Shown here in pieces: positions 2,890-25,638 of a stretch of 64,000 nt of DNA. A program made the translations under genes and the position numbers. Numbering within the stretch: the stretch's first letter is position 1; each line of letters starts with the position of its first letter. The DNA is from Candidatus Enterousia sp. (GTDB lineage Bacteria; Pseudomonadota; Alphaproteobacteria; Rs-D84). The notes under the pieces were generated by a model. It saw only the letters and a program-made list of their open reading frames with translations, was not told where the DNA came from and searched no databases. The DNA is taken from the NCBI GenBank assembly GCA_045114635.1, contig JBGUKY010000021.1, forward strand, positions 6,100 through 70,099, read 5' to 3'.

Positions 2890-3849
2890 TTATTGGTTAT
2901 CAAGAATTTCTTTCAATTCAATCATATCATCTGGCATATGTGCTTTAAAGTGCATTTTTTCACCGGTTATTGGGTGCATAAACTCCAAGATTTCAGCATG
3001 TAACATTTGACCGTTATGTTCGCGCAAAAAATCAAGCAATTCTGGGTCTTTTACGGATCCAATATGCCCCTTTTCACGACCATAAAGTGGGTCACATAAA
3101 ACAGGGAATCCATGTGACGACAAATGAACCCTTATTTGATGGGTTCGTCCGGTCATAAGAGTACAACGAAACATCGAAATACCTGGGCGGGTCCAAACAT
3201 CCATAACATTGACAATTGTATGTGCTGGTTTGCCACCCGTTTTTACCAATGACATTTTTTGTCTATTTCGTGATGAACGAGCAATATTTCCAGTTATTTC
3301 AGCCCCACCCCAAGTTGGAACACCCCAAACAAAAGCAACATATTTACGGGTTAAATCGTGCGCAGAAAAAATCTTTACAAGTCCGCGATATGCGGCATCG
3401 CTTTTCGCAAAAACCATCGCACCACTTGTGTCTTTATCAAGACGATGAACGACCCCGGGCCTTGTTTGGCCACCCAACGCAGACAAATGGGTATAAGCCA
3501 ACAGGTTTTGAACCAATGTCCCTGTTTTATTTCCAGCACTTGGGTACATAACAACACCGCGTGGCTTGTTAATCACAATAATATCATCGTCTTCGTATAA
3601 AATTTCCAAATCAAAATCACTGCTGATATTATCATATGCCACATCAGTCTTTTTTTCAGCAATTTCTACAACAAATTCGTCATTTAATTTTGTTTTTTCA
3701 GACAATTTTAATGGGCGACCGTCAGTGCGATCTATTTTGAATTTTTGAATTTCACTGCGCGAATATTCAGGCATAGAGATTGACAAAAACTTATCAATTC
3801 TTATTCCCACATTTTCTTCATTAACCAAAAATTTTTTGATATCAGCCAT
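2890..3849 (-). CDS. rluD: 23S rRNA pseudouridine synthase, RluA family (RluD-like) with N-terminal S4 domain.
   Basis: Catalytic motif HRLDKDTSGAMVFAK; S4-like N-terminus (IRIDKFLS); 319 aa, the typical RluD size. Confidence 0.75.
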   Translation of the reverse strand: MADIKKFLVNEENVGIRIDKFLSISMPEYSRSEIQKFKIDRTDGRPLKLSEKTKLNDEFVVEIAEKKTDVAYDNISSDFDLEILYEDDDIIVINKPRGVVMYPSAGNKTGTLVQNLLAYTHLSALGGQTRPGVVHRLDKDTSGAMVFAKSDAAYRGLVKIFSAHDLTRKYVAFVWGVPTWGGAEITGNIARSSRNRQKMSLVKTGGKPAHTIVNVMDVWTRPGISMFRCTLMTGRTHQIRVHLSSHGFPVLCDPLYGREKGHIGSVKDPELLDFLREHNGQMLHAEILEFMHPITGEKMHFKAHMPDDMIELKEILDNQ

Positions 3850-4331
3850 TATCTATATTCTGTCCATTTTGGACCTTGTTCACACTTTGAAATATCAATC
3901 GTAAAGTTACGTTTTCCTTCTACTGGACAAGTCAAAATCCCGGTCGAACGAGCCTGGGTTGCATCTTCTGTTGCATTACGCCACGCAAAAGAAATTGTGT
4001 CTGGTTTATAAACACAGACTATACGTAAATGTCCTGACATTTTTCCATTTGGTGACAACCATACACGAACACTGTCTGATTCGCCATAACAAGGAAAAGA
4101 ATCAAGGTAATATAATACCAGACCTTCTTTAACAAGAGATTTATCTGTCCCCTTGATTGTTCCGGTATATTGGTTAAGTTGCAACCCTGTTACCGCAGCC
4201 CAATCAACAGTCGTTGAAAACACGCTTACGCGTTGAACTGGTGCCGGTGCTGGTGGTGGCGGCGTTGACTGTGTATCTGCAAATGCAGCAACACAAAACA
4301 AAGATAAAAATATTATGAAAATATTCTTCAT
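3849..4331 (-). CDS. Small secreted protein with a Pro-rich linker (hypothetical).
   Basis: Signal peptide MKNIFIIFLSLFCVAAFA followed by TPPPPAPAP and a Cys-containing beta-rich region. Start codon overlaps the rluD stop and the ZitP-like gene end, so it looks co-transcribed. Confidence 0.45.
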   Translation of the reverse strand: MKNIFIIFLSLFCVAAFADTQSTPPPPAPAPVQRVSVFSTTVDWAAVTGLQLNQYTGTIKGTDKSLVKEGLVLYYLDSFPCYGESDSVRVWLSPNGKMSGHLRIVCVYKPDTISFAWRNATEDATQARSTGILTCPVEGKRNFTIDISKCEQGPKWTEYR

Positions 4332-4837
4332 TTCGATTCCTTTAATTCAACAGACAATCTTTTAACATTTGTCGGATCAACTGATAACATATGGTTAAAT
4401 GTAACTGTTGTTTTTGATTCAAGCAATGTTGCCGGTGGCATAAAAGTTTGTCGGGACAAAACATTACCCATCGCATCATAGGAAATAATTATTATATTTG
4501 GCAAACCATATATTTCATCTGTTGTATTGGTGATATTACCAGATACAAATATACGATTGTTTCCATTTTCATCCAATACAGTATGTATATTTTTCTCATC
4601 TATCTTTGTAATCAAAGGTTGGCTTTTTTTCATACCAGAAAAATTCATGACAACCACAAAAGAAAATATACAAGCTGCGATAAAAGCACAAACCGCCGCA
4701 ATAAATTTTATCATTGTTTTGTGCTGAAACGGAACCCGTGGTGTCCAAACATGCCCACACACAGCGCACTTCACAGGTGTCGTTGGTGCATGTTCTAAAT
4801 TGTATTCTGTTTTACAAAAATTACATACTATCTTCAT
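4328..4837 (-). CDS. ZitP-like protein: N-terminal MJ0042-type zinc-ribbon, one TM helix, C-terminal DUF3426-like domain.
   Basis: N-terminus MKIVCNFCKTEYNLEHAPTTPVKCAVCGHVW (CxxC...CxxC zinc ribbon). Then TM segment FIAAVCAFIAACIFSFVVV and a ~100 aa beta-rich C-terminal domain. This architecture matches Caulobacter ZitP and its alphaproteobacterial homologues, which control polar pilus biogenesis. Confidence 0.55.
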   Translation of the reverse strand: MKIVCNFCKTEYNLEHAPTTPVKCAVCGHVWTPRVPFQHKTMIKFIAAVCAFIAACIFSFVVVMNFSGMKKSQPLITKIDEKNIHTVLDENGNNRIFVSGNITNTTDEIYGLPNIIIISYDAMGNVLSRQTFMPPATLLESKTTVTFNHMLSVDPTNVKRLSVELKESK

Positions 4838-4874: not shown

Positions 4875-6203
4875 TTATAAATTCAACATTTCATATTTAG
4901 CACGTATTTGTGTCTGCATATTATTTATCGCATTTATATAATCAGCAACTGTCGCATTCACATTGGCAGAAACCCCACCAAATATTGTTGTCGCAACAGT
5001 TCCTTGATTTGATTCTTGTGCCATTATAATTGAAGCCATACGTGAAAGTTCTGGGGAATTTATATCAACAAAACGTGCCTTACTGTTTTTAATATCCCAA
5101 TAATAAGAGGAATCTTTTGAATCTTGAATTTTATCTGAAATATGTAGTTGTGGTGTCACAGACCCAGTATAACCAACAGATACATATGTCGCATTTATAC
5201 TACCTAAAATTAAATCCATGTCACCTATAATTTTTAACGAAGAAGATTTTCCAGAAGTGTTTGAAACACTAAAACCACTTAAAGTTAAAGTGTTTACATA
5301 CAAATCATTTGTAGAAAAAGAAGAAAATTTTGCCGAATCTGCCAAAGTCAATGTTCCATTGACATTCAGATTCCGAGAATCCGCAGTTAAAGCACCGTTT
5401 ACAACGGCTATATTTGTTGAATATACCGCATCTATGGTTGAACGATTTGCAAAAACTAATGTGGATACATCCAATTTGCCGATTTTTAATTTTTCTTCAA
5501 ATTGTGCTTTATATGCATCTACAAAGCGAATATTTTTTATATCATGTCCATCTAAATTCAAGGCTGATTGCATTGTCGCATCGTCTTCATTTTCTGACGG
5601 CAGTCTCCATAAATATTCTGTATTACCACGTTTTATATTTGTCGTTCCAACCAAACCTTTGGTGTTTGACAAACCAAAATCAGCCGCCGAAGAACGAAAG
5701 GCCCCAAAACCACCGTATGTCACATTACCTTCAACGAAACCAAATTTGCCACCACCCAAGTTAACTATTTCACGTGTACGCATTGGGGATATATCACTAT
5801 TTGTCAAAAGCACTATACCTTGTAACACAGAATTATTTTTATTATCCGAAGATTTCAAAACACGCAGCTGATAATCATCACCATATGTATCAGCAATATA
5901 TTCTGGCAACCCATAATTTATTAAATCATTGATTTTAATATGGGTTATGTTTTTACCCTTTGGACGCATCAGTTCAGTTTTATTTTCAACAATATATCTT
6001 TCAAGTGCATTTTGAACCCTTTCCATTTGTTTTGTTATCGCAACATTTCTTGCACGCAAAACTGCGGTTTGTTGATATCTGAAAACAAACGGTATAATTA
6101 TTGCAGCCAGCGCAACGGTCATCATCAATTCAACAAGCATTCCACCGCGTTGCATATTTTTACGAAAAAGATTCAGTGTTCTCGTCATTATTTCGTATGC
6201 CAA
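4875..6203 (-). CDS. Large type IV pilin-like / pseudopilin-like protein with a class-III signal peptide.
   Basis: MQRGG|MLVELMMTVALAAIIIPFVF: Gly, then a hydrophobic helix with Glu close to +5. The true start may be the internal Met at ~6155, giving a short MQRGG leader like those of the neighbouring genes. Rest of the 442 aa protein is beta-rich and Ser/Thr/Asn-rich. Confidence 0.5.
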   Translation of the reverse strand: MAYEIMTRTLNLFRKNMQRGGMLVELMMTVALAAIIIPFVFRYQQTAVLRARNVAITKQMERVQNALERYIVENKTELMRPKGKNITHIKINDLINYGLPEYIADTYGDDYQLRVLKSSDNKNNSVLQGIVLLTNSDISPMRTREIVNLGGGKFGFVEGNVTYGGFGAFRSSAADFGLSNTKGLVGTTNIKRGNTEYLWRLPSENEDDATMQSALNLDGHDIKNIRFVDAYKAQFEEKLKIGKLDVSTLVFANRSTIDAVYSTNIAVVNGALTADSRNLNVNGTLTLADSAKFSSFSTNDLYVNTLTLSGFSVSNTSGKSSSLKIIGDMDLILGSINATYVSVGYTGSVTPQLHISDKIQDSKDSSYYWDIKNSKARFVDINSPELSRMASIIMAQESNQGTVATTIFGGVSANVNATVADYINAINNMQTQIRAKYEMLNL

Positions 6204-7393
6204 TTTTGTTTTATTATTTTGTTAAATTCATCGGCATCTGGAACTGGTGGAACAGATGCGCGTGTCAAAGTCAATTTTGAAAAAGAAGGTGGTGTCAAAG
6301 AAGGAAACGACCAATTACCTATTTTCAAAGGTGCAACGCCTGCCAACAATAATTCACCAGAAACAGTTATGCCAAAGTTTTCAAAAAACACTAAATCTGT
6401 TGCCGATAAATATGGCGTCAAAAGTTTATTCATAGATATACCACTAAAACCAGAAACACTTCTACCACTTGAAGATTTCAAAATTAAATTACCAGCAACA
6501 TTGACAGAGTTTCCAATTGTTGCTCTATCCACTATCAGTTTACCGTTTGTTGTATATTTATCGTCGTTTAACACTTTCGCTTTGATAAGTCTAAAACCAC
6601 TTGTATCACCCGTCACACGCATAGAAGAAAATGTTATGCTTTCTGAATTCATGTTTGCCCCAGAAGAAAAATATACATTGTTTGCATCAACAACATCTGA
6701 TTCAAGAAACACTGCATCAACATCTATAATTTTAGCAGACAAACCATCAACTTTGGCCGCATTAAATACATTAAAATTATTCATATGTAAGTCACGATTC
6801 ATTTGATTCAAAGCATCTTCGCCCATTGTGCCACGATGCAAGAACCTTGATTTATCTGCCCCTTCAAAATCATGCGATACTCTGAAAATTAAATCACCAA
6901 CATTAAAATCTTCTGGTGCAGACACAGCCCAACTTTGTGAATAGGCGATACCGTCTTCACGTACAACCGCAGCATCTTCACCAATTTGTTTTGCGATATT
7001 TGCCGCTCTGTAATCAGATTTTCCCATATCAAAAGCCAAATAAACATCGCTTATGGACGCACCGTTTACTTTATATCTGTCAATATACCCACTATGAGCA
7101 TCAGCAGATATTTTCTTTAAATCTTCATCAGATAATTTTATTTCTGTTGTATCTTTCCATTGACCTTGATTTACACGAATATAATTTACAACAACATCTC
7201 GTATTTTTACTATTTCATTTGCATGCGCGATATCTTCTGATTCATTAGACATTTCTATAATTTGATTGTACATAAAAGGCGATATAGCAATCACAACAGC
7301 CACAGCCAAAATAACTTCGGTCAATGTTGCACCGTATTGCGAAAACGCGTTTAATCTTTCAAAATATTTTTTACATACAATCACTGCGCCCAC
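6188..7393 (-). CDS. Large type IV pilin-like / pseudopilin-like protein with a class-III signal peptide (long leader).
   Basis: ...FSQYG|ATLTEVILAVAVVIAISPF: Gly, Glu at +5, ~20 aa hydrophobic helix. 401 aa. Overlaps its neighbours, consistent with an operon. Confidence 0.5.
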   Translation of the reverse strand: MGAVIVCKKYFERLNAFSQYGATLTEVILAVAVVIAISPFMYNQIIEMSNESEDIAHANEIVKIRDVVVNYIRVNQGQWKDTTEIKLSDEDLKKISADAHSGYIDRYKVNGASISDVYLAFDMGKSDYRAANIAKQIGEDAAVVREDGIAYSQSWAVSAPEDFNVGDLIFRVSHDFEGADKSRFLHRGTMGEDALNQMNRDLHMNNFNVFNAAKVDGLSAKIIDVDAVFLESDVVDANNVYFSSGANMNSESITFSSMRVTGDTSGFRLIKAKVLNDDKYTTNGKLIVDRATIGNSVNVAGNLILKSSSGRSVSGFSGISMNKLLTPYLSATDLVFFENFGITVSGELLLAGVAPLKIGNWSFPSLTPPSFSKLTLTRASVPPVPDADEFNKIIKQNWHTK

Positions 7394-8723
7394 TCTCTAA
7401 ACATTGTTTTATATTTATTCTTGATTCCAATCTTTGCCAAAAAACATATTGGCATATTATATTTTGTGCCAAGGATTTACTATTATAAGCGACATCCATT
7501 TGATTGATTATATCTTTACAAGAAACTTTTTTGCCTGTTGTATCTTTTGGGTCTGCAATAATTTCAAAAGAATCATTATTTATTCCGTCAACATAAGCAT
7601 CCGGCAAAAGTGTTGTTCCTGCAGGTCTTATATCAATCAATAATGGTCCAGATTGACCATCTAATAATCCATACGAAGTTTGATCACGCAACGATATATT
7701 TGCAGCATATATATTTTTTACATCAACACCTTTTTTGGTGGTATAGGTTAGGCTTTCCGGATCAATATAAACATCTTGTCCACGCGACGCATCCAAAAAA
7801 GAACCGATATCTAATCTATCAACATTAAAACTAAAATTATCAGCACGTACAGCGCCACGAACCAGCCAATCAGAAGGCCCATCAAACCCCGTTCTGCCTT
7901 CGGACATAGAAAAGTCATATACAGACGCAACCTCAGATTCAAACCCACCTGTCGTTCCAAATCTGGAAATAGTACGCAAAGATGCAGACGATGTATTTAT
8001 TTCACCACGCGAAAGAGACAAAGCAGCACCACCATCAGCGCTTTGAAACACCGTTTTATTCGCGTACAAATCTGAAATTTTGTTTTTATCTTTTCTACTT
8101 TCTTCTACACCATAAAGCGACAAAGTAGTAAATTGCGCACTTTCAAATTCACCATTACGCGCAAACAAAACACCTATCTTGTCCACACTTTTTTCATTCA
8201 TATCAAGTTCAGACAAAAAACCGACATTTTCACCTGTTTCTTTTTTTGAAACTATATCGCTGTACATTTCATCAAGCGGTATATCAACTTCGATATTGCT
8301 TCCATTGATCTTTGCATAAAAACCTATTCTTCGCGCCAATTCTGCAAGTTGTATTTTCGACAATTTTCCACTTGTAACATTTATAAAACCGTAAAGCCCG
8401 TCTTCACTTTTGTTGATAATCAAAGATATGTTTTGGTTAAAATGTGTTCTTGGACTAAACCCAAGTGGCAATCCATAATTTTCTAATACTTCTACAAAAT
8501 CTTCTTTGCTCAACTCTTGTTTTTTATACGGCAAATTTTCTTTTTCTTCACGCAAATAAATACGTGCAGCCGATTGTGCCATTTCAATTTGTTCTGTAAC
8601 GGCATACATTTGGGCAGCCATGTCGCGTGATGAAATACGCCGCGCAAAAAAAGGCATAAAAGCAAAAACCAATGTCAATGCTAATAACGCTTGTAACAAA
8701 AAATTACCTGTCTGTTTTTGCAA
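7371..8723 (-). CDS. Large pseudopilin-like protein (GspK/PilX-like: prepilin-type N-terminus but no Glu+5).
   Basis: MQKQTG|NFLLQALLALTLVFAFMPFF, then a 450 aa beta-rich protein with four Cys near the C-terminus. First gene of the minus-strand operon. Confidence 0.4.
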   Translation of the reverse strand: MQKQTGNFLLQALLALTLVFAFMPFFARRISSRDMAAQMYAVTEQIEMAQSAARIYLREEKENLPYKKQELSKEDFVEVLENYGLPLGFSPRTHFNQNISLIINKSEDGLYGFINVTSGKLSKIQLAELARRIGFYAKINGSNIEVDIPLDEMYSDIVSKKETGENVGFLSELDMNEKSVDKIGVLFARNGEFESAQFTTLSLYGVEESRKDKNKISDLYANKTVFQSADGGAALSLSRGEINTSSASLRTISRFGTTGGFESEVASVYDFSMSEGRTGFDGPSDWLVRGAVRADNFSFNVDRLDIGSFLDASRGQDVYIDPESLTYTTKKGVDVKNIYAANISLRDQTSYGLLDGQSGPLLIDIRPAGTTLLPDAYVDGINNDSFEIIADPKDTTGKKVSCKDIINQMDVAYNSKSLAQNIICQYVFWQRLESRINIKQCLESGRSDCM

Positions 8724-8874: not shown

Positions 8875-9192
8875 ATGCCAAACAAAAAAAATCAAACCTC
8901 TGTGGGTCAGATGATTCAACGCTGTCATAAATGGCGTCAAAAAAGAAAACAATATATTGACTTGGCTCGCCAAACAAGTGATGAGATTGAACGCGAACGC
9001 CTTCTTCAAACGGCTGAACATTATGGTCGTATTGTTAATGAAGAACAGGTCAAAATTGATTCTCAGCGCGACCCTAAGGACAAAACGCCAATTCCAGAAG
9101 AAATCGCCGAAGCATCTGAAAATAACGAACAAAACGATGCAAGTGACGATGAAGAAATTGGATTTCCAGATTTTATTACAAATTTGAAATAA
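8875..9192 (+). CDS. DUF4167-family protein (alphaproteobacterial, basic N-terminus).
   Basis: Motif ...DLARQTSDEIERERLLQTAEHYGRIV matches the conserved DUF4167 core (..LARDA...ENYLQHAEHYFRI..). Acidic C-terminal tail. Sits immediately upstream of dnaX. Confidence 0.5.
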   Translation: MPNKKNQTSVGQMIQRCHKWRQKRKQYIDLARQTSDEIERERLLQTAEHYGRIVNEEQVKIDSQRDPKDKTPIPEEIAEASENNEQNDASDDEEIGFPDFITNLK

Positions 9193-9231
9193 TCCGGCCT
9201 CTTTTTTATTGAAATCGTATATTTATTTGCT

Positions 9232-10785
9232 ATGCTTTCCCCTAAAGGAAGCACTATGGATACTAATTATACGGTTTTAGCACGAAAATACAGAAGTCAG
9301 GACTTTGAATCTCTTATTGGTCAAGACGTTTTAGTCAAAACATTAACCACCGCTATTAATACTGGTCGTATTGCACATGCGTACATTTTTACGGGTATTC
9401 GTGGAACTGGAAAAACCAGTACTGCGCGTATTTTAGCCAAGGCATTAAACTGTTTATCTTCTGATCACGCAACAGCAAAACCATGTGGTGTTTGCGAAAA
9501 CTGTCGCGCTATTGCAGCCGGACAACACATTGATGTTATGGAAATTGACGCTGCTTCCCATACAGGTGTTGATAATATGCGTGAAATATTGGACGCAGCA
9601 CTTTACCGTCCAACAAATGCGCGTTACAAAGTTTATATTATCGACGAAGTTCATATGTTATCCACCAGCGCTTTTAACGCGTTGCTTAAAACATTGGAAG
9701 AACCACCTGCACACGTAATATTTATTTTAGCAACAACAGAAATAAGAAAAGTTCCTGTGACCATATTATCACGTTGCCAACGTTTTGATTTGGCACGTGT
9801 ACCTGTTGAAACATTAAAGAAACATTTCGCATGGGTTGCAGAACAAGAAAAGATTGAATTATCAGATGGCGCAAATGAATTATTGGCACGTGCTGCCGAT
9901 GGCTCTGTTCGTGACGGACTTTCACTTCTTGATCAAGCCATCGCTCAAACAGGTGGTCATGTTGATGAAGGCGCTGTTCTTGATATGTTAAAAAGAACAG
10001 ATCGTGGCACAGTTGTTAATTTTATGAAAATTGTTTTATCTGGTGATGTTAATGCTGCATTAAATAAATTAGATGAAATATATAACAATGGCGCAGATTT
10101 GACTATGTTGTTAAATGACATGATGGAATGGACGCATTGGGCAACACGCATGTATCCATCGCTTCGCTTACAAGATGTAACATCTTCACCATATACAGCA
10201 GATCAACGTGAAACCATTCGCAAAATTAACGAAAACATTTCACTTAATACACTTTCACGTATTTGGCAGGTTATGGTTGCATCTGTTTCTGAATTACAGG
10301 CATCTGGTAATCAAAAACAATGTTTTGATATGCTGATTGTTCGTTTGATGCATATTGCAGACATGCCATCAATTCCTGAATTATTAAAACAAGATCAACC
10401 TGCACCGGCAAAAGCAGAGGCAAAACCAGCACCAGAAAAATCAAAAGCCGCGAAAATAAGTACTTCTGACGAATTGGCGACCGCTTTACAAAAAGATCGC
10501 GAATTGTTGTTATATTCTTACTACACAACAAATCTTGAAATAACAGAATTTGAAAATGGAAAAATAAAATATTTTGATCGCAAAGGCGACAAAGATTTTT
10601 CAAACAAACTGGCTTTGTGGTTAAAAGAAAAAACCGGTAAAAATTGGAACCTTGAATTGATTCAAGAAGCACCACACCAACAAACATTGTCAGAACACAC
10701 AAAATCTGAAATTGAATCTGATCCAATGGTGGCAAGTGCAATGGACTTATTCGAAGGCGCAGAAATTGTGAACATATCTAAATAA
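9232..10785 (+). CDS. dnaX: DNA polymerase III subunit gamma/tau.
   Basis: AAA+ Walker A GIRGTGKTS; zinc module CGVCENC; sensor motifs; 517 aa. Confidence 0.92.
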   Translation: MLSPKGSTMDTNYTVLARKYRSQDFESLIGQDVLVKTLTTAINTGRIAHAYIFTGIRGTGKTSTARILAKALNCLSSDHATAKPCGVCENCRAIAAGQHIDVMEIDAASHTGVDNMREILDAALYRPTNARYKVYIIDEVHMLSTSAFNALLKTLEEPPAHVIFILATTEIRKVPVTILSRCQRFDLARVPVETLKKHFAWVAEQEKIELSDGANELLARAADGSVRDGLSLLDQAIAQTGGHVDEGAVLDMLKRTDRGTVVNFMKIVLSGDVNAALNKLDEIYNNGADLTMLLNDMMEWTHWATRMYPSLRLQDVTSSPYTADQRETIRKINENISLNTLSRIWQVMVASVSELQASGNQKQCFDMLIVRLMHIADMPSIPELLKQDQPAPAKAEAKPAPEKSKAAKISTSDELATALQKDRELLLYSYYTTNLEITEFENGKIKYFDRKGDKDFSNKLALWLKEKTGKNWNLELIQEAPHQQTLSEHTKSEIESDPMVASAMDLFEGAEIVNISK

Positions 10786-10801
10786 TCAGGGGGACAAAAA
10801 A

Positions 10802-11257
10802 ATGAGGGAACAATCAGGACGTTCATTGATAGAAATTATCGGCGTACTTGCTATTGGCGCAATTATGGTTTCTGGAACTTATGCGATATATAATTCTACA
10901 AATGCAAAACAAAAAAGATTGATCGCATCAAGTGAATTGGAAAACATTGCAACAAAAACAAAAACACTTCTGGAATATTCTGGTTATATACCTGTATCTG
11001 TTGATTTCTTGATTGAATCTGGCGCGCTATCCAGCGACAAAGCCCCAGCAGGAAGTCAAGATTGGTCGATCACAAGTAATTTTGATGGTACAGAATTTTC
11101 AATCAATTTATCTGGGTTGAGTTTTGATGAATGTGCATATTTCACAACAAAAAAATTTGATTGGACAACACATATAAGCGTTAATGGGTATGACACAAAG
11201 GAAACATCATATTGTCTTAAAACAGGTGACAACAAAATATCATTTTTTGCTAAATAA
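10802..11257 (+). CDS. Type IVa pilin-like protein (prepilin).
   Basis: MREQSG|RSLIEIIGVLAIGAIMVSG: textbook class-III signal with Glu+5. C-terminal Cys pair (ECAYF...SYC) typical of the disulfide-bonded D-region. RBS AGGGGGAC 6 nt after the dnaX stop and no terminator between them. Confidence 0.65.
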   Translation: MREQSGRSLIEIIGVLAIGAIMVSGTYAIYNSTNAKQKRLIASSELENIATKTKTLLEYSGYIPVSVDFLIESGALSSDKAPAGSQDWSITSNFDGTEFSINLSGLSFDECAYFTTKKFDWTTHISVNGYDTKETSYCLKTGDNKISFFAK

Positions 11258-11260
11258 AAT

Positions 11261-11935
11261 ATGAAATTATTAAATTTTGTTTTTGTCAGTTTATGTTTGT
11301 CTGGGTGTTTACAATACCACAGCCCATCACACGACATGTGGAACAAATATCTATACGGCGCAAGTTTTACAGATATGACAGAAACATCACGCACTGCTAA
11401 AATGCCTGTGTATATGGGACGTGGTGGCAAGATTATAACACAAACAGGTGAATTATCTGAAAAAATGCAATATGGTGACAAAAACGCGATAGATAATACA
11501 GTATTGATAAATTATATGGCTAATCTGGAATACGAATTATACGATGCATTGCGCAAACCAGGTCTTTCTGTTCAGCGGGCAGGTACAGATGTTGTTGTAA
11601 TTTTGGTACGCGACAGTATTATGGATCAATCTGTCGCAGACATATCAAGTGACGGCGCAGATACACTTAAAACAATTTCAAAAATATTAAATAAATACAA
11701 TGCAACATTTATGGAAATTGCAGGATATACGGATTCTATGAAAAACAAAAACGCATCATACGCATTATCTTTGGACATGGCAGAACGTGTCGGTGTATAT
11801 TTTTCACAACACAACATTTCAACATCACGTATGTTCATCGTGGGACGTGGCGCGGCACGACCAATTGCTGCCCAAGATGACATTGGCCGTTTAACAAACC
11901 GTCGTGTTGAAATAAGATTGACTCCGGCACGATAA
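11261..11935 (+). CDS. OmpA/MotB-family lipoprotein.
   Basis: Lipobox LSGC at the N-terminus. C-terminal OmpA-like peptidoglycan-binding domain (IAGYTDS...NASYALSLDMAERV...RRVEIRL). Starts 4 nt after the pilin-like gene. Confidence 0.65.
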   Translation: MKLLNFVFVSLCLSGCLQYHSPSHDMWNKYLYGASFTDMTETSRTAKMPVYMGRGGKIITQTGELSEKMQYGDKNAIDNTVLINYMANLEYELYDALRKPGLSVQRAGTDVVVILVRDSIMDQSVADISSDGADTLKTISKILNKYNATFMEIAGYTDSMKNKNASYALSLDMAERVGVYFSQHNISTSRMFIVGRGAARPIAAQDDIGRLTNRRVEIRLTPAR

Positions 11936-12007
11936 AAACACTTTGCGTTTTCATATAAATATTGCTATATTCTTAATAACCAAATAACAAAAACAAAGGA
12001 AGTAAAG

Positions 12008-12667
12008 ATGAAAAAAACAACTGAATTAAACCCAATTTTGAAAAAATATTCTAAACAAGGCATTATTGCTGTTTCTGTTATAGTTGTTGCATTGATTGGT
12101 ATTTTTGCAATATCTGCTATATCACGTAATGTAAGCACAGAAAAAGCAATCGCAGAAGTTTCAACTAATGCCGCAAATGCTGCTGATTTACGTATTGCTG
12201 TTATCAGCATGGAAAAGATACAAATGGAAGCAAAAGTTTTAGAAGATTTACATAAACAACGTGCTTCTTTTGAAAACAAATTAAAAACAAAACTTGAAAA
12301 AGAACAGAAAGCAATCGAAAAAGAAAAAGCAGATATTGAAAAATCTCAAGACGTTTTATCGCAAGAAGCATTGCAACGTCGTGTTGTAGATTATCAACGT
12401 CGCGTAACTGAATTCCAACGTCACTTATCAGAAAGCGCACAATCAATCGAAGCATCATATCAAGACGCTTTACAAACAATCCAAAAGAAACATCTTGATC
12501 CTGTTATTCAAGGTATCATCGCAAAGAAAAAATTGTCTTTGGTAATTGATGGCCGTATGGCACGTATGGGTGACAATGTTAAAGATCTTGATATCACAGA
12601 TGAAGTTGTAAAAGCATTGAACAAAAAAGTTTCATCTGTAAAAATGGCATCACCAAAAGGTTTATAA
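12008..12667 (+). CDS. OmpH/Skp-like periplasmic chaperone.
   Basis: N-terminal anchor/signal, long coiled-coil region, C-terminal ...LDITDEVVKALNKK typical of the OmpH family. Confidence 0.45.
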   Translation: MKKTTELNPILKKYSKQGIIAVSVIVVALIGIFAISAISRNVSTEKAIAEVSTNAANAADLRIAVISMEKIQMEAKVLEDLHKQRASFENKLKTKLEKEQKAIEKEKADIEKSQDVLSQEALQRRVVDYQRRVTEFQRHLSESAQSIEASYQDALQTIQKKHLDPVIQGIIAKKKLSLVIDGRMARMGDNVKDLDITDEVVKALNKKVSSVKMASPKGL

Positions 12668-12687
12668 TAAAACATCAGTAAAAAAAC

Positions 12688-12716
12688 AACCGCCCAAACG
12701 GGCGGTATTTTTTTAT
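12688..12716. terminator. Bidirectional intrinsic terminator between the skp-like gene and infB.
   Basis: Hairpin CCGCCCAAACGGGCGG flanked by an A-run upstream and a T-run downstream. Confidence 0.6.
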
Positions 12717-12729
12717 TGTTCAAACAATA

Positions 12730-15123
12730 TTAAAGTTGTGCTTTGACTTCTTGAACTTCGTAACATTCAACACGATCTCCTTCTTTAAGGTCGTTATATT
12801 TATCGAAACTCATACCAAATTCAACGCCAACACTAACTTCACTAACTTCATTCTTTTCACGACGCATTTCACCAATTTTGCCATCATAGATAACAACATT
12901 GTTGCGCAACAAACGCACAAAAGCAGATTTTTTAATTACGCCTTCACTGACTCTACAACCGGCAACTTTAATACCTTTGCCCACAGTGAACAATGCAATA
13001 ACATCTGCATATCCGATAAAGTTTTCTTTGCGTTCTGGTGCTAATTTACCAGACAATATTTCTTTGATTTCGTCTGTGATACGATAAACAACACTGTGAT
13101 ATCTTATATCAACACCGTTGTTGCGCGCCATATCACGTACAGCAGAATCTGCACGAACATTAAACGCAATAATTACCGCACCAGATGCAGTTGCCAATCT
13201 GATATCACCTTCGGTAATTTGACCAACACCAGCAGATAACAATTCAACACCAGCTTTATCAGAATTAAATCCGCGCAACATATCAGAGATCGCTTCCACA
13301 GATCCTTGAACGTCAGCACGTAAAATAACAGGCAAAGTCAACTTCTTTGTTTCATCACGTTTGGCAAACAATTCTTCGAGCGATGAACGTTTAACAGCAT
13401 TTGCTTTATCTTTTGCTTTTTGAACACGGTATGCAGCAACTTCACGTGTTTGCGCTTCTGTTTCCATAACATGTAATTCGTCACCAGCGCTTGGCACAGA
13501 TTCCAATCCCAAAACCATAGCAGGTTGACCTGGTTTTACAGATTTAACACGAACACCGCTTGAATTTATCAAACCACGAACACGTCCAAATGTTTCACCA
13601 ACTACGAACACATCACCAACAGACAATGTTCCCTGACGAACCAAAACAGTTGCGACAGCGCCAAGTCCTTTTTCCATCTTTGCTTCAACAACATATGCAG
13701 ATGCCAACATATCAGGATCCGCTTTAAGGTCCATAATTTCGGCCTGTAATAAAATAGCCTCTTCTAATTTGTCCAAGCCCATTTTTGTTTTGGCAGATAT
13801 TTCAACACATTGAACATCGCCCCCCATTTCTTCGACCTGAACTTCTTGTTGTAAAAGATCTGTTTTAACACGATATGGATCGGCTTCTGGTAAATCACAT
13901 TTGTTAATAGCAACAATGAATGGGACCTTGGCCGCACGAATATGATTTATTGCCTCGATAGTTTGTGGCATAATTGAATCGTTTGCCGCAACCACTAAAA
14001 CAACAATATCTGCAATTTGTGCACCACGTGCACGCATTGCTGTAAATGTTTCGTGTCCTGGTGTATCCAAGAAAGTTATTATTGCACCAGATTTTGTTTT
14101 AACTTCGTATGATGAAATATGTTGTGTAATTCCACCTGCTTCGCCCGCAACAACATTCGCGTTACGGAATGCGTCTAATAACGAAGTTTTACCATGGTCA
14201 ACGTGACCCACAACTGTCACAACTGGATAACGTGGTTGTAATCTATCTGCGTGTGGTTCTTCTTCCAAAATATTGGCAAAAGGTTTTACATCAACACGTT
14301 TAACTGTTGCACCAAATTCTGTAGCAATCAATTCAGCAGTATCAGCATCAATAGATTGATTTTGAGATGCCATCATACCCATTTCCATCAATTTCTTGAT
14401 AACATTACCAACTTTTTCAGCCATAGCAGCAGCCAAATCTTTCACTGTGATAGTGTCACCAAGTGTAACAACGTGTTCCACTTTCTGTGGCACAGTAAAT
14501 ACAGCACGAGCTTTTTCACGGAAACGTTTTAATGAGGCTTCACTACGTCTGCGATTTGCGCCGCGCAAACCAATTTCATCATCGTCGTCATCTTCTCCAC
14601 CGCCGATAACAATATCATGGATAGAAATTTTTCCACCTTTTTTGAAATCTTTCTTGAAACGGTTTTGTTTAGATCCGCGAACATCATCAGCGTCATCATC
14701 ACGACGATTGTTATGGTTATTAAAGGCGACATTGTTTTTTCTGTTTTCGTGTGTATTTTCACGCACTGGTACAACAACTGCTTCTTCGGCAATTTGTTCT
14801 GTTTCACGTTGTGCCAACTGTTCTTTCACCGCTTCGTATTCGCGATTTTCACGTTCGATTTCTGCTTCACGCGCTTTAAGCGCAGCAGCTTCTTCGGCTT
14901 CGCGTTTTCTGCGTTCTTCATCACGTGCTTTTGCAGCCTCTAATACTGCACGTAATTTTTCATCTGCAGCACTGCGGACTGTTTCAACCTTTTTAGGTTC
15001 TTCACGCAATTCATTATTGCCTGGTGCAACAATACGACGACGACGTTCAACAAAGACCGCGTCGCCTTTCTTACTTTGCACTGCACCAACTGTTACAGAT
15101 TTTCCAAGTGTTAATGTCGCCAT
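12730..15123 (-). CDS. infB: Translation initiation factor IF-2.
   Basis: GTPase motifs [18 protein letters not shown]; 797 aa. Confidence 0.95.
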
Positions 15124-22712: not shown

Positions 22713-24744
22713 AATACAGTACACAAGATTGGCCCAATCCATCATCGTGTAGGCTAGCAGATACATTAGGTAAAACTTTATGTACAGATCTCCCCATATG
22801 ACTACATAAATCTAAATCCATACCAACACAAGCTTGTCTTGAACTGCCAACACGTTTTGTTTTACCGCCATACATATTGCAAATTGTATCTATTATTGAA
22901 GAAAAATTTGTTTTTTCTGTTAAAGAATCAAAATGAAAAATGTATTTTCTGCCATCAGTATCTTTACAAGACAAATAATCATCCAGCTTTTTTGTTATAA
23001 AACCATCATCACAATATAAATTTAAATTGTTTTTTTCTGCATATAAACCAATAAGTTTTTTACCTTTGTCTAGATCAGCTTTTGTTTCGCTAAAATCTGG
23101 CACATCTTTATCTGGTCCGACACATTTGTTATTTTTCCACTCCAAATCGCCAATACAATTACATTTCATGCCTTTGCCATCCCAATTATACGCGTTCTTT
23201 TTAACATGTATCTCCAAACAACATGCTTTACCTGCTTCGGTTTTAAACTGTGATGAACAATAACCCTCTGGATTGCTGCTTATTTTATCATCTGTCCATT
23301 GTATTGGTTCGGAAGCATTTTGAAGGCCAGATGTTGTTTCTGTCTTTGCAGAACAAGTAAATGTTTTTTCATTCAATACTGGTTTATCACTTGGACATTC
23401 ACAGATTGTATTTGTTTCATTTTTTACAAGATTACCCTTACATTCTGTCACTTTACATTTATTGCCTTCGACAATCCCATCTTTTGCTTTTAATTTATTC
23501 AATGTAGCAACTTTACATTTTTTTTGGCTTGCTACACCATCATCATCAAGATCTTCGCATTTGTGGGTTTTCCTGTTTTCAACTTTATCTGGGCCACAAT
23601 CACAAACAGTTCCACGCCATGTACCACCACTTTCAGGACTTTCACATGCTGCTTTGAATTTATTTATTTGATCTGCTGTATCTTTTGTACAAACCACATC
23701 TGAATCTAAACCTTTGGAAGCGATCGAATAATTTTTACCATTTAATGTTGTGTGGAAACCAGATTTACATTCTTGGATAAAACATTCCATTGTTCCGCCT
23801 TCGGCTTCTAAATAAACAGCTTTGACGGCATTATTTTGTTTTAAAAATTCAGAACCACACGGATCTTGTTCGGTGCTAGTTTTTGCACGTTTTTCTTTGC
23901 TTTTATCTACCACAGGGGCTGTTGATACAACTTTTTTGTTTTTACCTGGTTCGGTTGTTATAGCGTTTCCTTCTACTTCATCTTCATCGGATTCATCAGC
24001 TATACATTGTTTAGAATCAGGCGTGTAAAAACCATTGTTACATTCATTTATCAAACATTGTACTATTGTTTTTTCTGTATAATCTTCTGGTATAACTTTT
24101 TTTGTTGCCTCTTCTTCAGAAACAGAGGTTATTGTTTTATACGTTTCCCAATTTGTTGTCGCCCAAGCGCCACCGAATTTTGTAGTTTTTATATTGTCTG
24201 ATTTCTTGTTATCATCGTGTCCCTTGCAATTTGTCATAAACTTAATCACAGCATCTGCAAATTGTGAACGCAAAGACGGTGGTAATTCTTCTGGTTCATA
24301 TCCACGTGTAATAACACTATCGCCAGGATTTCCAGCCAAACCATTTATTCTTGCTATATCTTGTGTGGCAATAATTGTTAATGTATGTGTTCTATTGTAT
24401 TCGGCCACCCTTGCCGCTTCTGCAGCTTCTTCTTCAGCTTTTTGTTGTTTTTTTCTGTTATATTCTTTTTCTTTGTCCTGAAGAGTCGTATTTTGTTTTT
24501 CTATTGTTTTAGTATTATCTTTGATTATTTTTGCTTCTGCTATATTTCCAGCAACACCAACAGCAGTTAATCCAAGTGTCGATATTCCGGCAATCTGAAG
24601 TCCCTTATTGGTTCCCATACATTTTTCTAGTTCTTCTATTTTGCGCTGCTTTTCACGCACCAATTGGGTGTAACGCGCAGACGAACCAAAACATATACTT
24701 GGGGTCACTAGCAATAACAAAAAAGACATAAAATATTTTTTCAT
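22711..24744 (-). CDS. Cysteine-rich repeat secreted/surface protein carrying an N-terminal Cys+glycine-zipper module.
   Basis: Signal peptide, then EKCMGTNKGLQIAGISTLGLTAVGVAGNIAEAK, then many Cys-bounded repeats (INECNNGFYTPD / IQECKSGFHTT / CKVTECKGN...). 677 aa. Confidence 0.55.
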   Translation of the reverse strand: MKKYFMSFLLLLVTPSICFGSSARYTQLVREKQRKIEELEKCMGTNKGLQIAGISTLGLTAVGVAGNIAEAKIIKDNTKTIEKQNTTLQDKEKEYNRKKQQKAEEEAAEAARVAEYNRTHTLTIIATQDIARINGLAGNPGDSVITRGYEPEELPPSLRSQFADAVIKFMTNCKGHDDNKKSDNIKTTKFGGAWATTNWETYKTITSVSEEEATKKVIPEDYTEKTIVQCLINECNNGFYTPDSKQCIADESDEDEVEGNAITTEPGKNKKVVSTAPVVDKSKEKRAKTSTEQDPCGSEFLKQNNAVKAVYLEAEGGTMECFIQECKSGFHTTLNGKNYSIASKGLDSDVVCTKDTADQINKFKAACESPESGGTWRGTVCDCGPDKVENRKTHKCEDLDDDGVASQKKCKVATLNKLKAKDGIVEGNKCKVTECKGNLVKNETNTICECPSDKPVLNEKTFTCSAKTETTSGLQNASEPIQWTDDKISSNPEGYCSSQFKTEAGKACCLEIHVKKNAYNWDGKGMKCNCIGDLEWKNNKCVGPDKDVPDFSETKADLDKGKKLIGLYAEKNNLNLYCDDGFITKKLDDYLSCKDTDGRKYIFHFDSLTEKTNFSSIIDTICNMYGGKTKRVGSSRQACVGMDLDLCSHMGRSVHKVLPNVSASLHDDGLGQSCVLY

Positions 24745-25112
24745 TATTCGTTACCTATGTTTTCTATTTTTTTATCCCAAGATTTGAGTTGTTCTTTGTT
24801 TGAAGAAATAGTATCTTTTTGTTCCTTGATTTTTACCCCCTGAACACCAGCAGCAATACCTGTTGATACAACACCAGCCGAACCAATAACAGTTGCAGCA
24901 ACCCAGCCTTTTTTCTGTTTTTCACATTTAGCAATTTCTTCGTCCAATATAGCAATATCATTTTCAAGTATAGCAATAGCTTCTTCTTCATTTAATTCTG
25001 CTTCCATTTCTGCTGCATATTTTTCAGCGGTATGATTTTTTGTCTTTACCGCAGCATCTGCATTGAAAGCACCAAAAGCAATCATCAGAACAAATATAAA
25101 TATATTTTTCAC
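24744..25112 (-). CDS. Small secreted protein with a Cys+glycine-zipper module, paralogous to the N-terminus of the upstream 677 aa gene.
   Basis: Signal peptide MKNIFIFVLMIAFGAFNADA; AKCEKQKKGWVAATVIGSAGVVSTGIAAGVQGVK aligns with the 677 aa protein's module; coiled-coil flanks. Confidence 0.45.
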   Translation of the reverse strand: MKNIFIFVLMIAFGAFNADAAVKTKNHTAEKYAAEMEAELNEEEAIAILENDIAILDEEIAKCEKQKKGWVAATVIGSAGVVSTGIAAGVQGVKIKEQKDTISSNKEQLKSWDKKIENIGNE

Positions 25113-25203: not shown

Positions 25204-25280
25204 TGGTGGGCGTTAAGGGACTCAAACCCCTGACCCTCTCGGTGTAAACGAGATGCTCTAATCAACTGAGCTAAACGCCC
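25204..25280 (-). tRNA. tRNA-Val (anticodon TAC).
   Basis: Folded by hand: acceptor GGGCGTT/AACGCCC, D-arm GCTC...GAGC, anticodon stem TCTCG/CGAGA with loop TTTACAC, 3'-CCA encoded. T-loop reads TTTGAGT, which is atypical at position 56. Confidence 0.75.
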
Positions 25281-25330
25281 AAAGCGATAACAATATTACC
25301 TTATTTTTTTTATTTGTCCAGTGTTTTTTA

Positions 25331-25636
25331 TTATTCCAACGAACCTGTGACTTCATTCATTGTCTTTTCAATCAATGCATCTGCCTTATTTTTAGCATCA
25401 GAATATGCATCCATTACATATTTTGAAACCATTTCGGCACCATTTTCCAAAGCCAAAGGCTGAATTACAACGGACAAGACATCATATTTACCGGTCATTG
25501 TTACAATAACATTACCATTTCCAGCAATACCGCGCACCTGCATTTGACCAAGAGAATCTTGTGCGGCCGCTATTTTTGTTTGTAAATCTGCCGCTTGGGC
25601 CATCAATGATTCCATATCCATTGTGTTTGTCTCCAT
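25331..25636 (-). CDS. ybaB: Nucleoid-associated protein YbaB/EbfC.
   Basis: ~100 aa; the MQ...G.AG.G.V.V..G pattern and overall YbaB-family similarity. Confidence 0.8.
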   Translation of the reverse strand: METNTMDMESLMAQAADLQTKIAAAQDSLGQMQVRGIAGNGNVIVTMTGKYDVLSVVIQPLALENGAEMVSKYVMDAYSDAKNKADALIEKTMNEVTGSLE

Positions 25637-25638
25637 TT

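Follow-up and report, generated by a model that had tools for sequence, protein, structure and literature searches.

A conserved pilin-like gene of probable type IVb class between dnaX and an OmpA-domain lipoprotein gene in Candidatus Enterousia

In the 64,000-nt stretch of Candidatus Enterousia DNA analysed here (the window), an intact dnaX gene of the alphaproteobacterial type, with DUF3646, was followed on the same strand by a gene for a 151-aa pilin-like protein, an OmpA-domain lipoprotein gene and skp. Genes for three large pilin-like proteins (p450, p401 and p442) and two smaller genes lay upstream of dnaX in the opposite orientation (Table 1). dnaX was apparently the first gene of a putative operon. 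The usual gene order in most bacteria is dnaX-ybaB-recR. Here, as the preliminary description had noted, the slot after dnaX was filled by the pilin gene and ybaB was located 14 kb away, where it is now linked to pnp. Family scans of window ORFs of at least 120 aa gave no RecR-like match, and tblastn of the window with an E. coli RecR query returned nothing.

Table 1. Features of the dnaX-pilin locus, in window positions
Feature	Position	Strand	Basis
160-aa secreted protein	3849-4331	-	sequence, family scans
169-aa Zn-ribbon/TM/FxLYD-domain protein	4328-4837	-	family scans
The two small genes above, same direction as large paralogs	3849-4837	-	syntenic in 39/51 loci
p442, ~437-442 aa, N-terminus RG↓GMLVE (Glu at +5)	4875-6203	-	sequence, 42 orthologs
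p401, 401 aa, N-terminus YG↓ATLTE (Glu at +5)	6188-7393	-	sequence, orthologs
p450, 450 aa, N-terminus G↓NFLLQ (Gln in place of Glu at +5)	7371-8723	-	sequence, 45 orthologs
dnaX (DNA polymerase III gamma/tau)	9232-10785	+	NF006585, 615 bits; PF13177, PF12169, PF22608, PF12362
dnaX-pilin spacer, 16 nt, TCAGGGGGACAAAAAA	10786-10801	+	sequence; GGGGG ribosome-binding site at 10789-10793
Pilin-like gene, 151 aa, probable type IVb class	10802-11257	+	conservation, AF2, Foldseek, profiles
Leader MREQSG, 6 residues	10802-10819	+	predicted cleavage G6↓R7
OmpA_C-like peptidoglycan-binding-domain lipoprotein, 224 aa, lipobox LSGC	11261-11935	+	PF00691
skp/ompH periplasmic chaperone	12008-12667	+	PF03938, 61.4 bits; last gene before terminator
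Bidirectional intrinsic terminator	12689-12706	.	7-bp stem of which 6 pairs are GC; each strand has a T run
ybaB/ebfC	25331-25636	-	PF02575, 72.1 bits; follows pnp and a 121-aa ORF

The comparison with related genomes that had been proposed as a check covered 51 species representatives of Candidatus Enterousia and its relatives, which are reduced-genome gut Alphaproteobacteria. The order dnaX, pilin gene, OmpA-domain lipoprotein gene was kept among them: the pilin gene was situated directly 3' of dnaX in 51/51 and the lipoprotein gene 3' of the pilin gene in 50/51. skp was present in 46/51 loci and was followed by lpxD-fabZ in deeper lineages. Candidatus Enterousia belongs to the order Rs-D84 and is uncultured and widespread in the gut; its genomes measure about 0.75-1 Mb, flagella and a respiratory chain are lacking, and reliance on partner organisms has been suggested (PMC12306168). 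The same comparative paper on the order reported type IV pilus genes only for another lineage, not for Rs-D84 (PMC12306168), and our literature search found no paper about pilins in Enterousia or Rs-D84.

The protein encoded after dnaX begins with MREQSG↓RSLIEIIGVLAIGAIM, with Gly at -1 and Glu at +5 (E11). The predicted cleavage would leave a mature product of 145 aa, composed of a hydrophobic α1 helix and a globular domain, and the two cysteines of the protein are Cys111 and Cys138. The ORF was matched by 281 protein clusters of ~151 aa and was carried by all 51 species representatives, which rules out a chance ORF. Residues M1, E3, S5, G6, R7, S8, L9, E11, C111 and C138 were invariant in the 50 species of the conservation set, in which the pilin was otherwise 39-87% identical. 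The ORF is a real gene, and its pattern of conservation indicates strong purifying selection. Horizontal insertion was ruled out as well, the GC content of the pilin gene being that of its flanks and its position being fixed in all species. The same applies to a Sec signal peptide, given the Glu within the hydrophobic core, the unbroken predicted helix from residue 9 to 60 and the alignment with the mature TcpA N-terminus. The class III signal-like N-terminus, Glu at +5 and the conserved Cys pair bear out the earlier recognition of a pilin-type gene. The N-terminus is not the textbook prepilin one that had been stated: an invariant Arg replaces Phe at +1, and the N_methyl model (PF07963) scored 17.4 bits, under its cut-off of 21.2. 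To our knowledge, no characterised pilin displays Arg at +1.

The junction between dnaX and the pilin gene was compact. The GGGGG motif lies 8 nt 5' of the pilin ATG, no terminator was found between the two genes by the terminator scan, and both sequence and scan thus agreed with the 16-nt spacer, ribosome-binding site and missing terminator described previously. The junction RNA appeared unstructured (z = +1.0) and Rfam recorded no family in the region. Where it was measured, the dnaX-pilin spacer ranged from -1 nt up to 25 nt, with stop/start overlap in several species, and the gap between the pilin and lipoprotein genes from -11 to +5 nt in the 35 species for which the start was located, the lipobox Cys being kept. 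Because these conserved spacers are so short, co-transcription of the pilin gene with dnaX, as already proposed, and with the lipoprotein gene is very likely. Translational coupling across the three genes, including that of the lipoprotein gene to the pilin gene, is probable. Spacers in the order dnaX-pilin-lipoprotein-skp leave no room for a terminator; the first strong one after dnaX is the hairpin found between skp and the convergent infB gene.

The lipoprotein gene directly follows the pilin gene, as previously indicated, with a gap of 3 nt (its ATG begins at the fourth base after the pilin stop). Its product starts with MKLLNFVFVSLCLSGC, including the LSGC lipobox, and contains an OmpA_C domain (PF00691, 44.7 bits for a gathering score of 27.2). 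It remained under all NCBIfam equivalog cut-offs, the best being YiaD (92.6 versus 175), with Pal at 23.7 versus 125; the MotB, TssL and IcmN/DotK equivalog models likewise did not score above cut-off.

The 151-aa protein had been assigned to the classical type IVa pilins. Fold and profile homology indicate type IVb instead, the closest systems being the major pilins TcpA of V. cholerae, bundlin (BfpA) of EPEC, CofA/LngA of ETEC and PilS of R64/Salmonella Typhi. The AF2 model (pLDDT 79, with values below 50 for the first 27 residues) displayed a helix from residue 9 to 60, four strands and a helix bearing C111. When this model was compared with PDB structures by Foldseek, the best 13 matches were all CofA, TcpA and PilS (TM score up to 0.71, query-normalised), these were the only proteins with E below 0.06, and no type IVa pilin, pseudopilin or GspG was present among the 50 matches listed. 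The predicted fold is therefore that of type IVb pilins.

A link at the sequence level emerged only when distant relatives were added. The profile of the close family (A1) gave nothing significant against PDB sequences. It was clearly related to the profile of its distant relatives (A4) in hhalign (99.7%, E 4e-26), and the latter reached TcpA (7e-14), BfpA (7e-9) and CofA (2e-7) through the globular domain; whole-subunit homology to type IVb pilins is thus supported via the chain leading from A1 through A4 to TcpA, BfpA and CofA. The A4-TcpA alignment matched G6↓R7 with the site at which TcpA is cleaved, and paired the family's first conserved Cys with the Cys in the TcpA motif GLTQAQC. Matches of A4 to type IVa pilins (best 6e-7) did not extend past position 87 of the 151 in the profile, so that neither the profile reach nor the Foldseek matches listed revealed a type IVa-like globular domain. 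The 151-aa protein alone matched neither the NCBIfam pilin models nor PF00114, nor did it directly match PF08805 (PilS), its membership being established via transitive profiles and predicted fold. PF08805 was detected in 15/40 superfamily members (E up to 0.01), with scores of 26.1 and 29 bits for two of them, above the 22-bit cut-off, and PF05307 (Bundlin) in 6/40.

With TcpA, BfpA, CofA and PilS, the Enterousia pilin shares the cleavage motif G↓x(S/T)L(I/L)E, Glu at +5, a residue other than Phe at +1 (R7), the long α1 helix, the predicted fold and profile homology that includes the first Cys of the disulfide; the C-terminal-half Cys pair is also typical, the disulfide itself being putative. 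Unlike these pilins, it displays a leader of 6 residues instead of ~13-30, a mature size of 145 instead of ~180-200 aa and an invariant Arg at +1, and it lies under the threshold of every pilin-domain model. Its gene is likewise located outside any pilus operon, between dnaX and the lipoprotein gene of a reduced chromosome. In its leader the protein resembles type IVa pilins, whose leaders count 5-7 residues with Gly as the last, and G6 is invariant. The other type IVa marks at this end of the protein, Phe at +1 (G↓FTLIE) and an N_methyl score above threshold, were missing. GspG, defined by a G↓FTLIE start, its own fold and a gsp operon, fits no better, given Arg at +1 and a window devoid of gsp genes. 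Homology to type IVb pilins was shown by the profiles and the predicted fold, and the Enterousia pilin is an unannotated and previously undescribed variant within this known class. The explanation as a whole, namely that the protein is a small, divergent and filament-forming pilin precursor of the TcpA/bundlin/CofA/PilS superfamily, appears reasonably probable. The family adds to the type IVb class miniature subunits whose leader counts 6 residues and whose +1 residue is Arg, and it is missed by both the N_methyl and PilS annotation models.

Relatives of the Enterousia pilin displayed leaders of 5-12 residues, and those starting with G↓RS(M/L)(I/V)E were encoded in R64-like type IVb operons together with secretin, ATPase and platform genes. 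The nearest annotated relatives are the major pilins of such R64-like pil operons (PilL-V), found on Polaromonas sp. JS666 plasmid 2 and in the metagenomic loci L142 and L114. The latter two group genes for a TcpQ lipoprotein, a PilN secretin, PilO2, an ATPase, T2SSF, a pilin and a PilT-like ATPase. These are contiguous in the R64-like operons, whereas pilin-like genes alone were seen in Enterousia. The L142 pilin (SG↓RSMVE) has the Arg+1 motif in common with the Enterousia protein. Locus L063 carried T2SSE, T2SSF and two pilin genes, followed by genes for pilin-like proteins of 376 and 504 aa. Its 156-aa pilin was 31% identical to the 151-aa protein (E 7e-13 against 12 window proteins and 5e-11 against five pilins). 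BLASTP of the 151-aa protein within a five-sequence set gave 6e-10 for the Polaromonas pilin and 1e-7 for the L142 pilin; the tblastn match to Polaromonas plasmid 2 was weak (E 4e-3 against 7.3 Gb).

The proteins encoded between 4.8 and 8.7 kb had been proposed as tip components. They are paralogous (p442-p450, E 5e-9; p442-p401, E 3e-7), and the true start of p442 is probably a conserved Met at 6188, overlapping the p401 stop. G(-1) and E/D/Q(+5) were conserved across all orthologs of the three proteins: p450 kept G(-1) and Q(+5) in 45/45 orthologs, and the pilin-type motif of p442 was kept in 42. Initiator or tip subunits often lack Glu at +5. Because pilin-type N-termini are kept, p450, p401 and p442 are plausible minor or tip subunits, as had been suggested. 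They resemble TcpB, CofB and PilV, the large pilin-like partners of type IVb systems, in combining such N-termini with a size three times that of the major subunit, and the 376-aa and 504-aa proteins encoded after the L063 pilin genes offer a parallel to these large minor pilins. Unlike in the TcpB, CofB and PilV systems, there are three paralogs instead of one, one of them with Gln at +5, and no sequence likeness or reliable fold likeness to these partners was detectable past the N-terminal segment. p450 had no Pfam or NCBIfam match. The p401 family counted 646 homologs; its profile aligned with pilins over the N-terminal segment only and found nothing in the PDB, and for the large proteins in general no likeness to pilins was detectable beyond ~40 N-terminal residues. 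The p401 AF2 model was poor (pLDDT 44), only a long N-terminal helix and a few strands being of moderate confidence.

Assembly genes were not found in the vicinity. Pfam scans of essentially all window ORFs of at least 120 aa recorded housekeeping genes only, and neither a T2SSE ATPase, a T2SSF platform, an A24 prepilin peptidase nor a secretin was among them. The 7 kb of contig past the window contained no machinery, only rplT-pheST, and no machinery genes came up when 1.08 Mb of loci (±10 kb) from 51 related species were scanned by motif and by tblastn. ATPase, platform, peptidase and secretin genes occurred in one operon for L063 and L142, not at the Enterousia locus. A protein search with the secretin fragment of locus L094 recovered no PilN-type secretin from Enterousia, all those found belonging to a related lineage of 42-50% GC. 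In one gut lineage of Alphaproteobacteria, whose pilins bear GRSMIE, TcpQ and a PilN-type secretin were encoded among housekeeping genes, therefore dispersal of the machinery does occur. Since a related gut lineage disperses these genes, their absence beside the Enterousia pilin gene says little.

If the 151-aa protein is a type IVb pilin, it would be inserted in the inner membrane via its hydrophobic α1 helix, and MREQSG would be removed at G6↓R7 by a prepilin peptidase encoded elsewhere. A type IVb ATPase/platform/secretin machine, dispersed in the genome, would polymerise the subunits into a pilus or a short pseudopilus. The three large paralogs, encoded divergently upstream of dnaX, would prime or cap assembly, and the coupled OmpA-domain lipoprotein would fasten the filament machine to peptidoglycan. 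Being transcribed with dnaX, the pilin gene would be expressed constitutively. Assembly of the protein into a filament is inferred here from sequence relationships, and the role of such a filament would probably be attachment to, or uptake (DNA included) from, host or neighbour cells, the organism being thought to depend on partners. Type IV pili serve attachment to, or uptake from, partner cells in Patescibacteria. A tentative and more specific reading, possible but on the improbable side, is that of a minimal, genome-dispersed type IVb filament in which a mini-pilin with an obligatory Arg at +1 and three novel tip or initiator subunits of 400-450 aa, joined as a heterotrimer, are tied to dnaX and the lipoprotein, together forming an organelle for attachment to, or uptake from, partner cells. 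A stronger version would have no canonical ATPase or peptidase at all, an unrecognised machine handling the pilin-like proteins. The conserved "hypothetical" pilin gene, the three large pilin-like proteins and the coupled lipoprotein are a candidate attachment or uptake organelle of Enterousia, and pilin genes were found embedded in core housekeeping operons without a dedicated pilus operon.

Alternatively, the protein may be a relic that kept the pilin fold and anchor and no longer polymerises, the pilus machine having been lost, and that now serves periplasmic envelope maintenance together with the OmpA lipoprotein and Skp. Searches empty of machinery in both the window and the 1.08 Mb of related loci fit this idea, as do surroundings devoted to envelope biogenesis (the lipoprotein gene and skp, with lpxD-fabZ in deeper lineages), the heavily reduced genomes and the lack of any report of type IV pili in Rs-D84 (PMC12306168). 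We nevertheless consider it unlikely. Gly(-1) and Glu(+5) were invariant in 50 species, both positions were kept in three more pilin-like families at the locus, and a buried Glu is not expected to last in a plain membrane anchor exempt from pilin-type processing or assembly, which argues against a relic. So do the near sequence relatives within complete type IVb operons and the dispersed TcpQ and PilN secretin that the related gut lineage keeps.

A pseudopilin, forming a short periplasmic pseudopilus for type II secretion-like export or competence DNA uptake and no surface pilus, is decidedly unlikely. The mature size of 145 aa and the 6-residue leader resemble those of GspG or ComGC-type subunits, relatives bear the IMG names PulG or PilE, ComP_DUS was weakly matched by 3/40 superfamily members, and in related lineages dprA was located close to the pilin and secretin genes. 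Protein secretion by type IVb systems, TCP and CFA/III among them, counts in the same direction. Against these points stand the lack of a GspG-type structure among the Foldseek matches listed, the gsp genes that were not found, and the closest operons, which are pilus operons of R64/PilS type and encode a large subunit resembling PilV as well as a PilT-like ATPase.

Finally, a classical type IVa major pilin served by a PilBCDMNOPQ-type machine is highly improbable: the leader of 6 residues, the ~145-aa mature size, Glu at +5 and the C-terminal Cys pair would suit it, but the invariant Arg in place of Phe at +1, the N_methyl score under threshold with no PF00114 or NCBIfam pilin match, Foldseek matches listed that were exclusively type IVb and a profile following TcpA, BfpA and CofA through the globular domain where type IVa matches stop all speak against it, as does the location of its relatives in R64-like type IVb operons.

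The predicted fold and the profile homology of the 151-aa protein encoded downstream of dnaX both place it in the type IVb class of pilins. Its N-terminus follows the class III signal pattern at -1 (Gly) and +5 (Glu); the "textbook prepilin N-terminus" of the preliminary description fails at +1, where the family displays an invariant Arg instead of Phe. The Pfam N_methyl model scored 17.4 bits, under its cut-off of 21.2, and none of the NCBIfam pilin models matched. The AlphaFold2 model (mean pLDDT 79, below 50 for the N-terminal 27 residues) displayed one long helix spanning residues 9-60 and, after it, a short one, a pair of strands, a C111-bearing helix and two more strands. Its top Foldseek matches in PDB were all type IVb pilins, i.e. 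CofA (9iuf, 3s0t, 3vor), TcpA (8uhf, 3hrv) and PilS (1q5f), with E-values from 3e-4 and TM scores (normalised to the query) up to 0.71. The 50 PDB matches listed included neither a type IVa pilin nor a pseudopilin. The initial designation as a classical type IVa pilin is therefore abandoned here.

Only 151 clusters were recovered when 1.8 billion representatives were searched exhaustively with a profile. The distant ones shared the start ...SG/RS(M/L)(I/V)E(M)LGVLAI, with the predicted cleavage site after SG, and the two Cys. Aligned with hhalign, the profile of these distant relatives and that of the close family of the window protein were homologous (99.7%, E 4e-26). The distant profile further matched TcpA (7e-14), bundlin BfpA (7e-9) and CofA (2e-7) in PDB; in the TcpA alignment, G6/R7 fell on the TcpA cleavage site and the first conserved Cys of the family stood opposite that of the TcpA GLTQAQC motif. 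Pfam PilS (PF08805) was found in 15 of 40 superfamily members (the scores seen, for two of them, were both above cut-off) and Bundlin in 6 of 40. A weak direct tblastn match of the window protein (27% identity, E 4e-3, in 7.3 Gb searched) lay on a Polaromonas plasmid whose R64-like pil operon encodes the matched "type 4 pilus major pilin". Within the type IVb class, the window protein departs by its 6-residue leader, its mature length of 145 aa and its Arg at +1. Five separate stretches of P0213, a 1684-aa protein, matched positions 76-142 of the pilin profile, its globular part, as if this giant protein had reused a pilin head domain as a repeat.

Features of the window and of related loci
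Feature	Position	Strand	Remarks
Cys-rich secreted protein, >944 aa	1-2835	-	runs off window start; 1053 aa in relatives; no Pfam match
169-aa and 160-aa proteins	3849-4837	-	169 aa: N-terminal MJ0042-type zinc ribbon, TM segment, FxLYD domain; 160 aa: Pro-rich, secreted
Three large pilin-like genes	4875-8723	-	450, 401 and ~440 aa; divergent from dnaX
105-aa acidic protein	8875-9192	+	weak DUF4167 match; immediately 5' of dnaX
dnaX-pilin spacer, 16 nt	dnaX stop ends 10785	+	TCAGGGGGACAAAAAA; GGGGG ribosome-binding site 8 nt before ATG
Pilin-like ORF, 151 aa	10802-11257	+	N-terminus MREQSGRSLIEIIGVLAIGAIMVSG
OmpA lipoprotein ORF	11261-11935	+	starts 3 nt past pilin stop; lipoprotein signal MKLLNFVFVSLCLSGC
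skp/ompH	12008-12667	+	next after OmpA lipoprotein gene
Terminator, bidirectional hairpin	12689-12706	both	first convincing one, after skp/ompH; common to convergent infB-nusA
Cys-rich secreted protein, 677 aa	22711-24744	-	no Pfam match
122-aa secreted protein	24744-25112	-	precedes the 677-aa protein
tRNA gene	25207-25280		after ybaB
pnp/121-aa ORF/ybaB/tRNA	25207-26004	-	adjacent stop and start codons; 121-aa ORF without Pfam match
ybaB	25331-25636	-	PF02575, 72 bits; behind pnp and 121-aa ORF
L063 (44% GC)			T2SSE, T2SSF, 156-aa and 164-aa pilins, 376-aa and 504-aa pilin-like proteins
L142 and L114 (45% GC)			TcpQ lipoprotein, PilN secretin, PilO2, ATPase, T2SSF, 188-aa pilin, PilT-like ATPase
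L007	8377-11145		GRSMIE-type pilins between uvrC/rluD
L064	4735-5199		GRSMIE-type pilins between uvrC/rluD
L149 (also L150, L151)	9026-12782		TcpQ-domain protein, PilN-type secretin (543 aa), 322-aa protein
L094	2-469		fragment of the secretin of this mini-cluster
L059	11950-14205		dnaX-pilin-OmpA-skp runs on into lpxD-fabZ
L057	12007-14326		dnaX-pilin-OmpA-skp runs on into lpxD-fabZ

The arrangement first read from the sequence was confirmed in every particular: an ORF after dnaX with its ribosome-binding site, no terminator, an OmpA lipoprotein gene, a displaced ybaB and recR undetected in the window (Pfam scans of ORFs, tblastn with an approximate RecR query). At the dnaX-pilin junction, the terminator scan gave no terminator-like site, no Rfam family was found and the RNA had no more structure than its shuffled counterparts (z = +1.0). 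The lipoprotein displayed an OmpA_C domain (PF00691, 44.7 bits, cut-off 27.2) and remained under all named equivalog cut-offs (YiaD 92.6 vs 175; Pal 23.7 vs 125). Near pnp, rpsO was not seen, its usual place being before that gene.

At cluster level, 281 homologs were collected, nearly all of exactly 151 aa and "hypothetical" where any name was given. In a scan limited to a single genome for each species, the gene turned up in 51 representatives, several labelled Candidatus Enterousia and the others "Alphaproteobacteria bacterium" or mislabelled MAGs. The synteny comparison proposed in the preliminary description placed dnaX directly upstream in all 51 loci and the OmpA lipoprotein gene next downstream in 50. 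Spacers between dnaX and the pilin gene ranged from -1 to 25 nt where measurable, with stop/start codon overlap in several species, and pilin-OmpA gaps from -11 to +5 nt, the lipobox Cys being kept (35 species with a located OmpA start). Such spacers leave no room for a terminator; from their geometry, co-transcription with dnaX is the default reading and translation is probably coupled. Residues M1, E3, S5, G6, R7, S8, L9, E11, C111 and C138 were invariant across 50 species whose pilins are merely 39-87% identical. The operon may begin with the gene of the 105-aa protein, which 46 of 51 species have kept. In the deepest lineages (L059 and L057), the continuation into lpxD-fabZ makes the pilin-OmpA pair the leading genes of an outer-membrane biogenesis cluster, which is broken up in the window; in L005, lpxD lies beyond rluD.

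The three large pilin-like proteins, previously described as putative tip proteins, were distant paralogs of one another without any Pfam, NCBIfam or PDB sequence match. Their pilin-like N-termini were kept in every ortholog: G/NFLLQ (Gln at +5) for the 450-aa, G/A(S/T)x(T/L)E for the 401-aa and G/(G/S)MLVE for the ~440-aa protein. These starts and their size agree with the earlier proposal, but similarity to pilins was undetectable beyond ~40 residues, and the AlphaFold2 model of the 401-aa protein was too poor for use. Of the 51 species, 42-45 have these genes alongside the pilin locus; L057 and L059, the two deepest lineages whose flanks are complete, lack them. By analogy, the trio fits the pattern of the type IVb large minor pilins TcpB, CofB and PilV, in size, N-termini and one subunit lacking Glu+5, and likewise that of the two L063 proteins of 376 and 504 aa. 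The neighbouring 169-aa and 160-aa genes are co-oriented with the trio and rluD, and syntenic in 39 of 51 species.

Relatives of the window protein occurred inside pilus machines. In L063, the 164-aa pilin matched PilS (29 bits) and the 156-aa pilin shared 31% identity with the window protein across 126 residues. Loci L142 and L114 carry a full R64-like set, and their 188-aa pilin begins with ...EQSG, followed across the predicted cleavage site by RSMVEMLGVLAI. The Arg+1 start is thus a subfamily trait and not an Enterousia oddity and, judging from these gene sets, is handled by canonical type IVb machinery. Other gut alphaproteobacterial lineages (42-50% GC) harboured GRSMIE pilin genes between uvrC and rluD, single or five in tandem (paralogs of 150-169 aa). 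Since rluD also adjoins the large pilin-like cluster of the window, this hints at an ancestral pilin-rluD linkage. Genes for TcpQ and a PilN-type secretin were located ~9.5 kb from GRSMIE pilins, among sufBD, rpsT, plsY, dprA and dnaA, indicating that scattered pilus machinery does occur in this group; database copies of the secretin of this mini-cluster, which belongs to a lineage of the same 42-50% GC range, were mostly fragments.

In the window (~36% GC, a low value), scanning essentially every ORF of at least 120 aa with Pfam revealed housekeeping genes only (e.g. lptFG/lptD, rlmN, pnp, parAB, infC, mutS, truB, recF-like, macAB-tolC-like, accBC, mreB, metG, ileS, pheT), and 7 kb more of the contig held only rplT-pheST. 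No gene for an ATPase, a platform protein, an A24 peptidase or a secretin emerged from motif and tblastn searches of the pilin gene surroundings in the 51 species (1.08 Mb in total). The host is an uncultured gut or rumen alphaproteobacterium (order Rs-D84 in GTDB, Alphaproteobacteria in NCBI). Enterousia genomes span 0.75-1.0 Mb, without flagella, TCA cycle or respiratory chains, and a partner-dependent lifestyle was suggested; in the same comparative paper, a different lineage is the only one for which type IV pilus genes are mentioned (PMC12306168).

We favour, with some reserve, the view that a dispersed machine builds a type IVb-type filament, of which the ORF encodes the major subunit or the only small one. 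The precursor would be cleaved at G6/R7 and polymerised by that machine, the three large paralogs would start or cap the filament, the coupled lipoprotein would tie the apparatus to peptidoglycan and transcription from the dnaX promoter would make expression constitutive. The case for an active system is best made by the absolute conservation, over deep divergence, of Gly at -1 and of Glu or Gln at +5 in four separate protein families, which is hard to explain if these were mere membrane anchors. This conservation likewise makes a relic, i.e. a non-polymerising pilin-fold envelope protein, rather unlikely. A short pseudopilus, serving secretion or the uptake of DNA, would share the mechanism of the favoured filament but differ in length and role; this reading has a small chance of being correct. 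A classical type IVa major pilin is highly improbable, contradicted by Arg+1, the N_methyl score and the type IVb fold matches.

The family is unannotated and escapes standard pilin models, while being a recognisable offshoot of a known class. It is unusual in its miniature size, short leader, obligatory Arg+1 and three novel large partner proteins, as well as in being fixed in a dnaX-OmpA-skp operon of a reduced genome, replacing ybaB-recR.

The very large Cys-rich secreted proteins of the window may be adhesin-like or otherwise located at the surface of this reduced-genome organism; the 677-aa one shares a segment with the 122-aa protein (30% identity over 59 aa, E 5e-4). Finally, the alphaproteobacterial dnaX-pilin-OmpA locus was encountered in public MAGs labelled Muribaculaceae or Bacteroidales (L030, L042, L057, L058), records of this kind including the 716-kb "chromosome" OZ246409.1, and the labels of these four loci look wrong.
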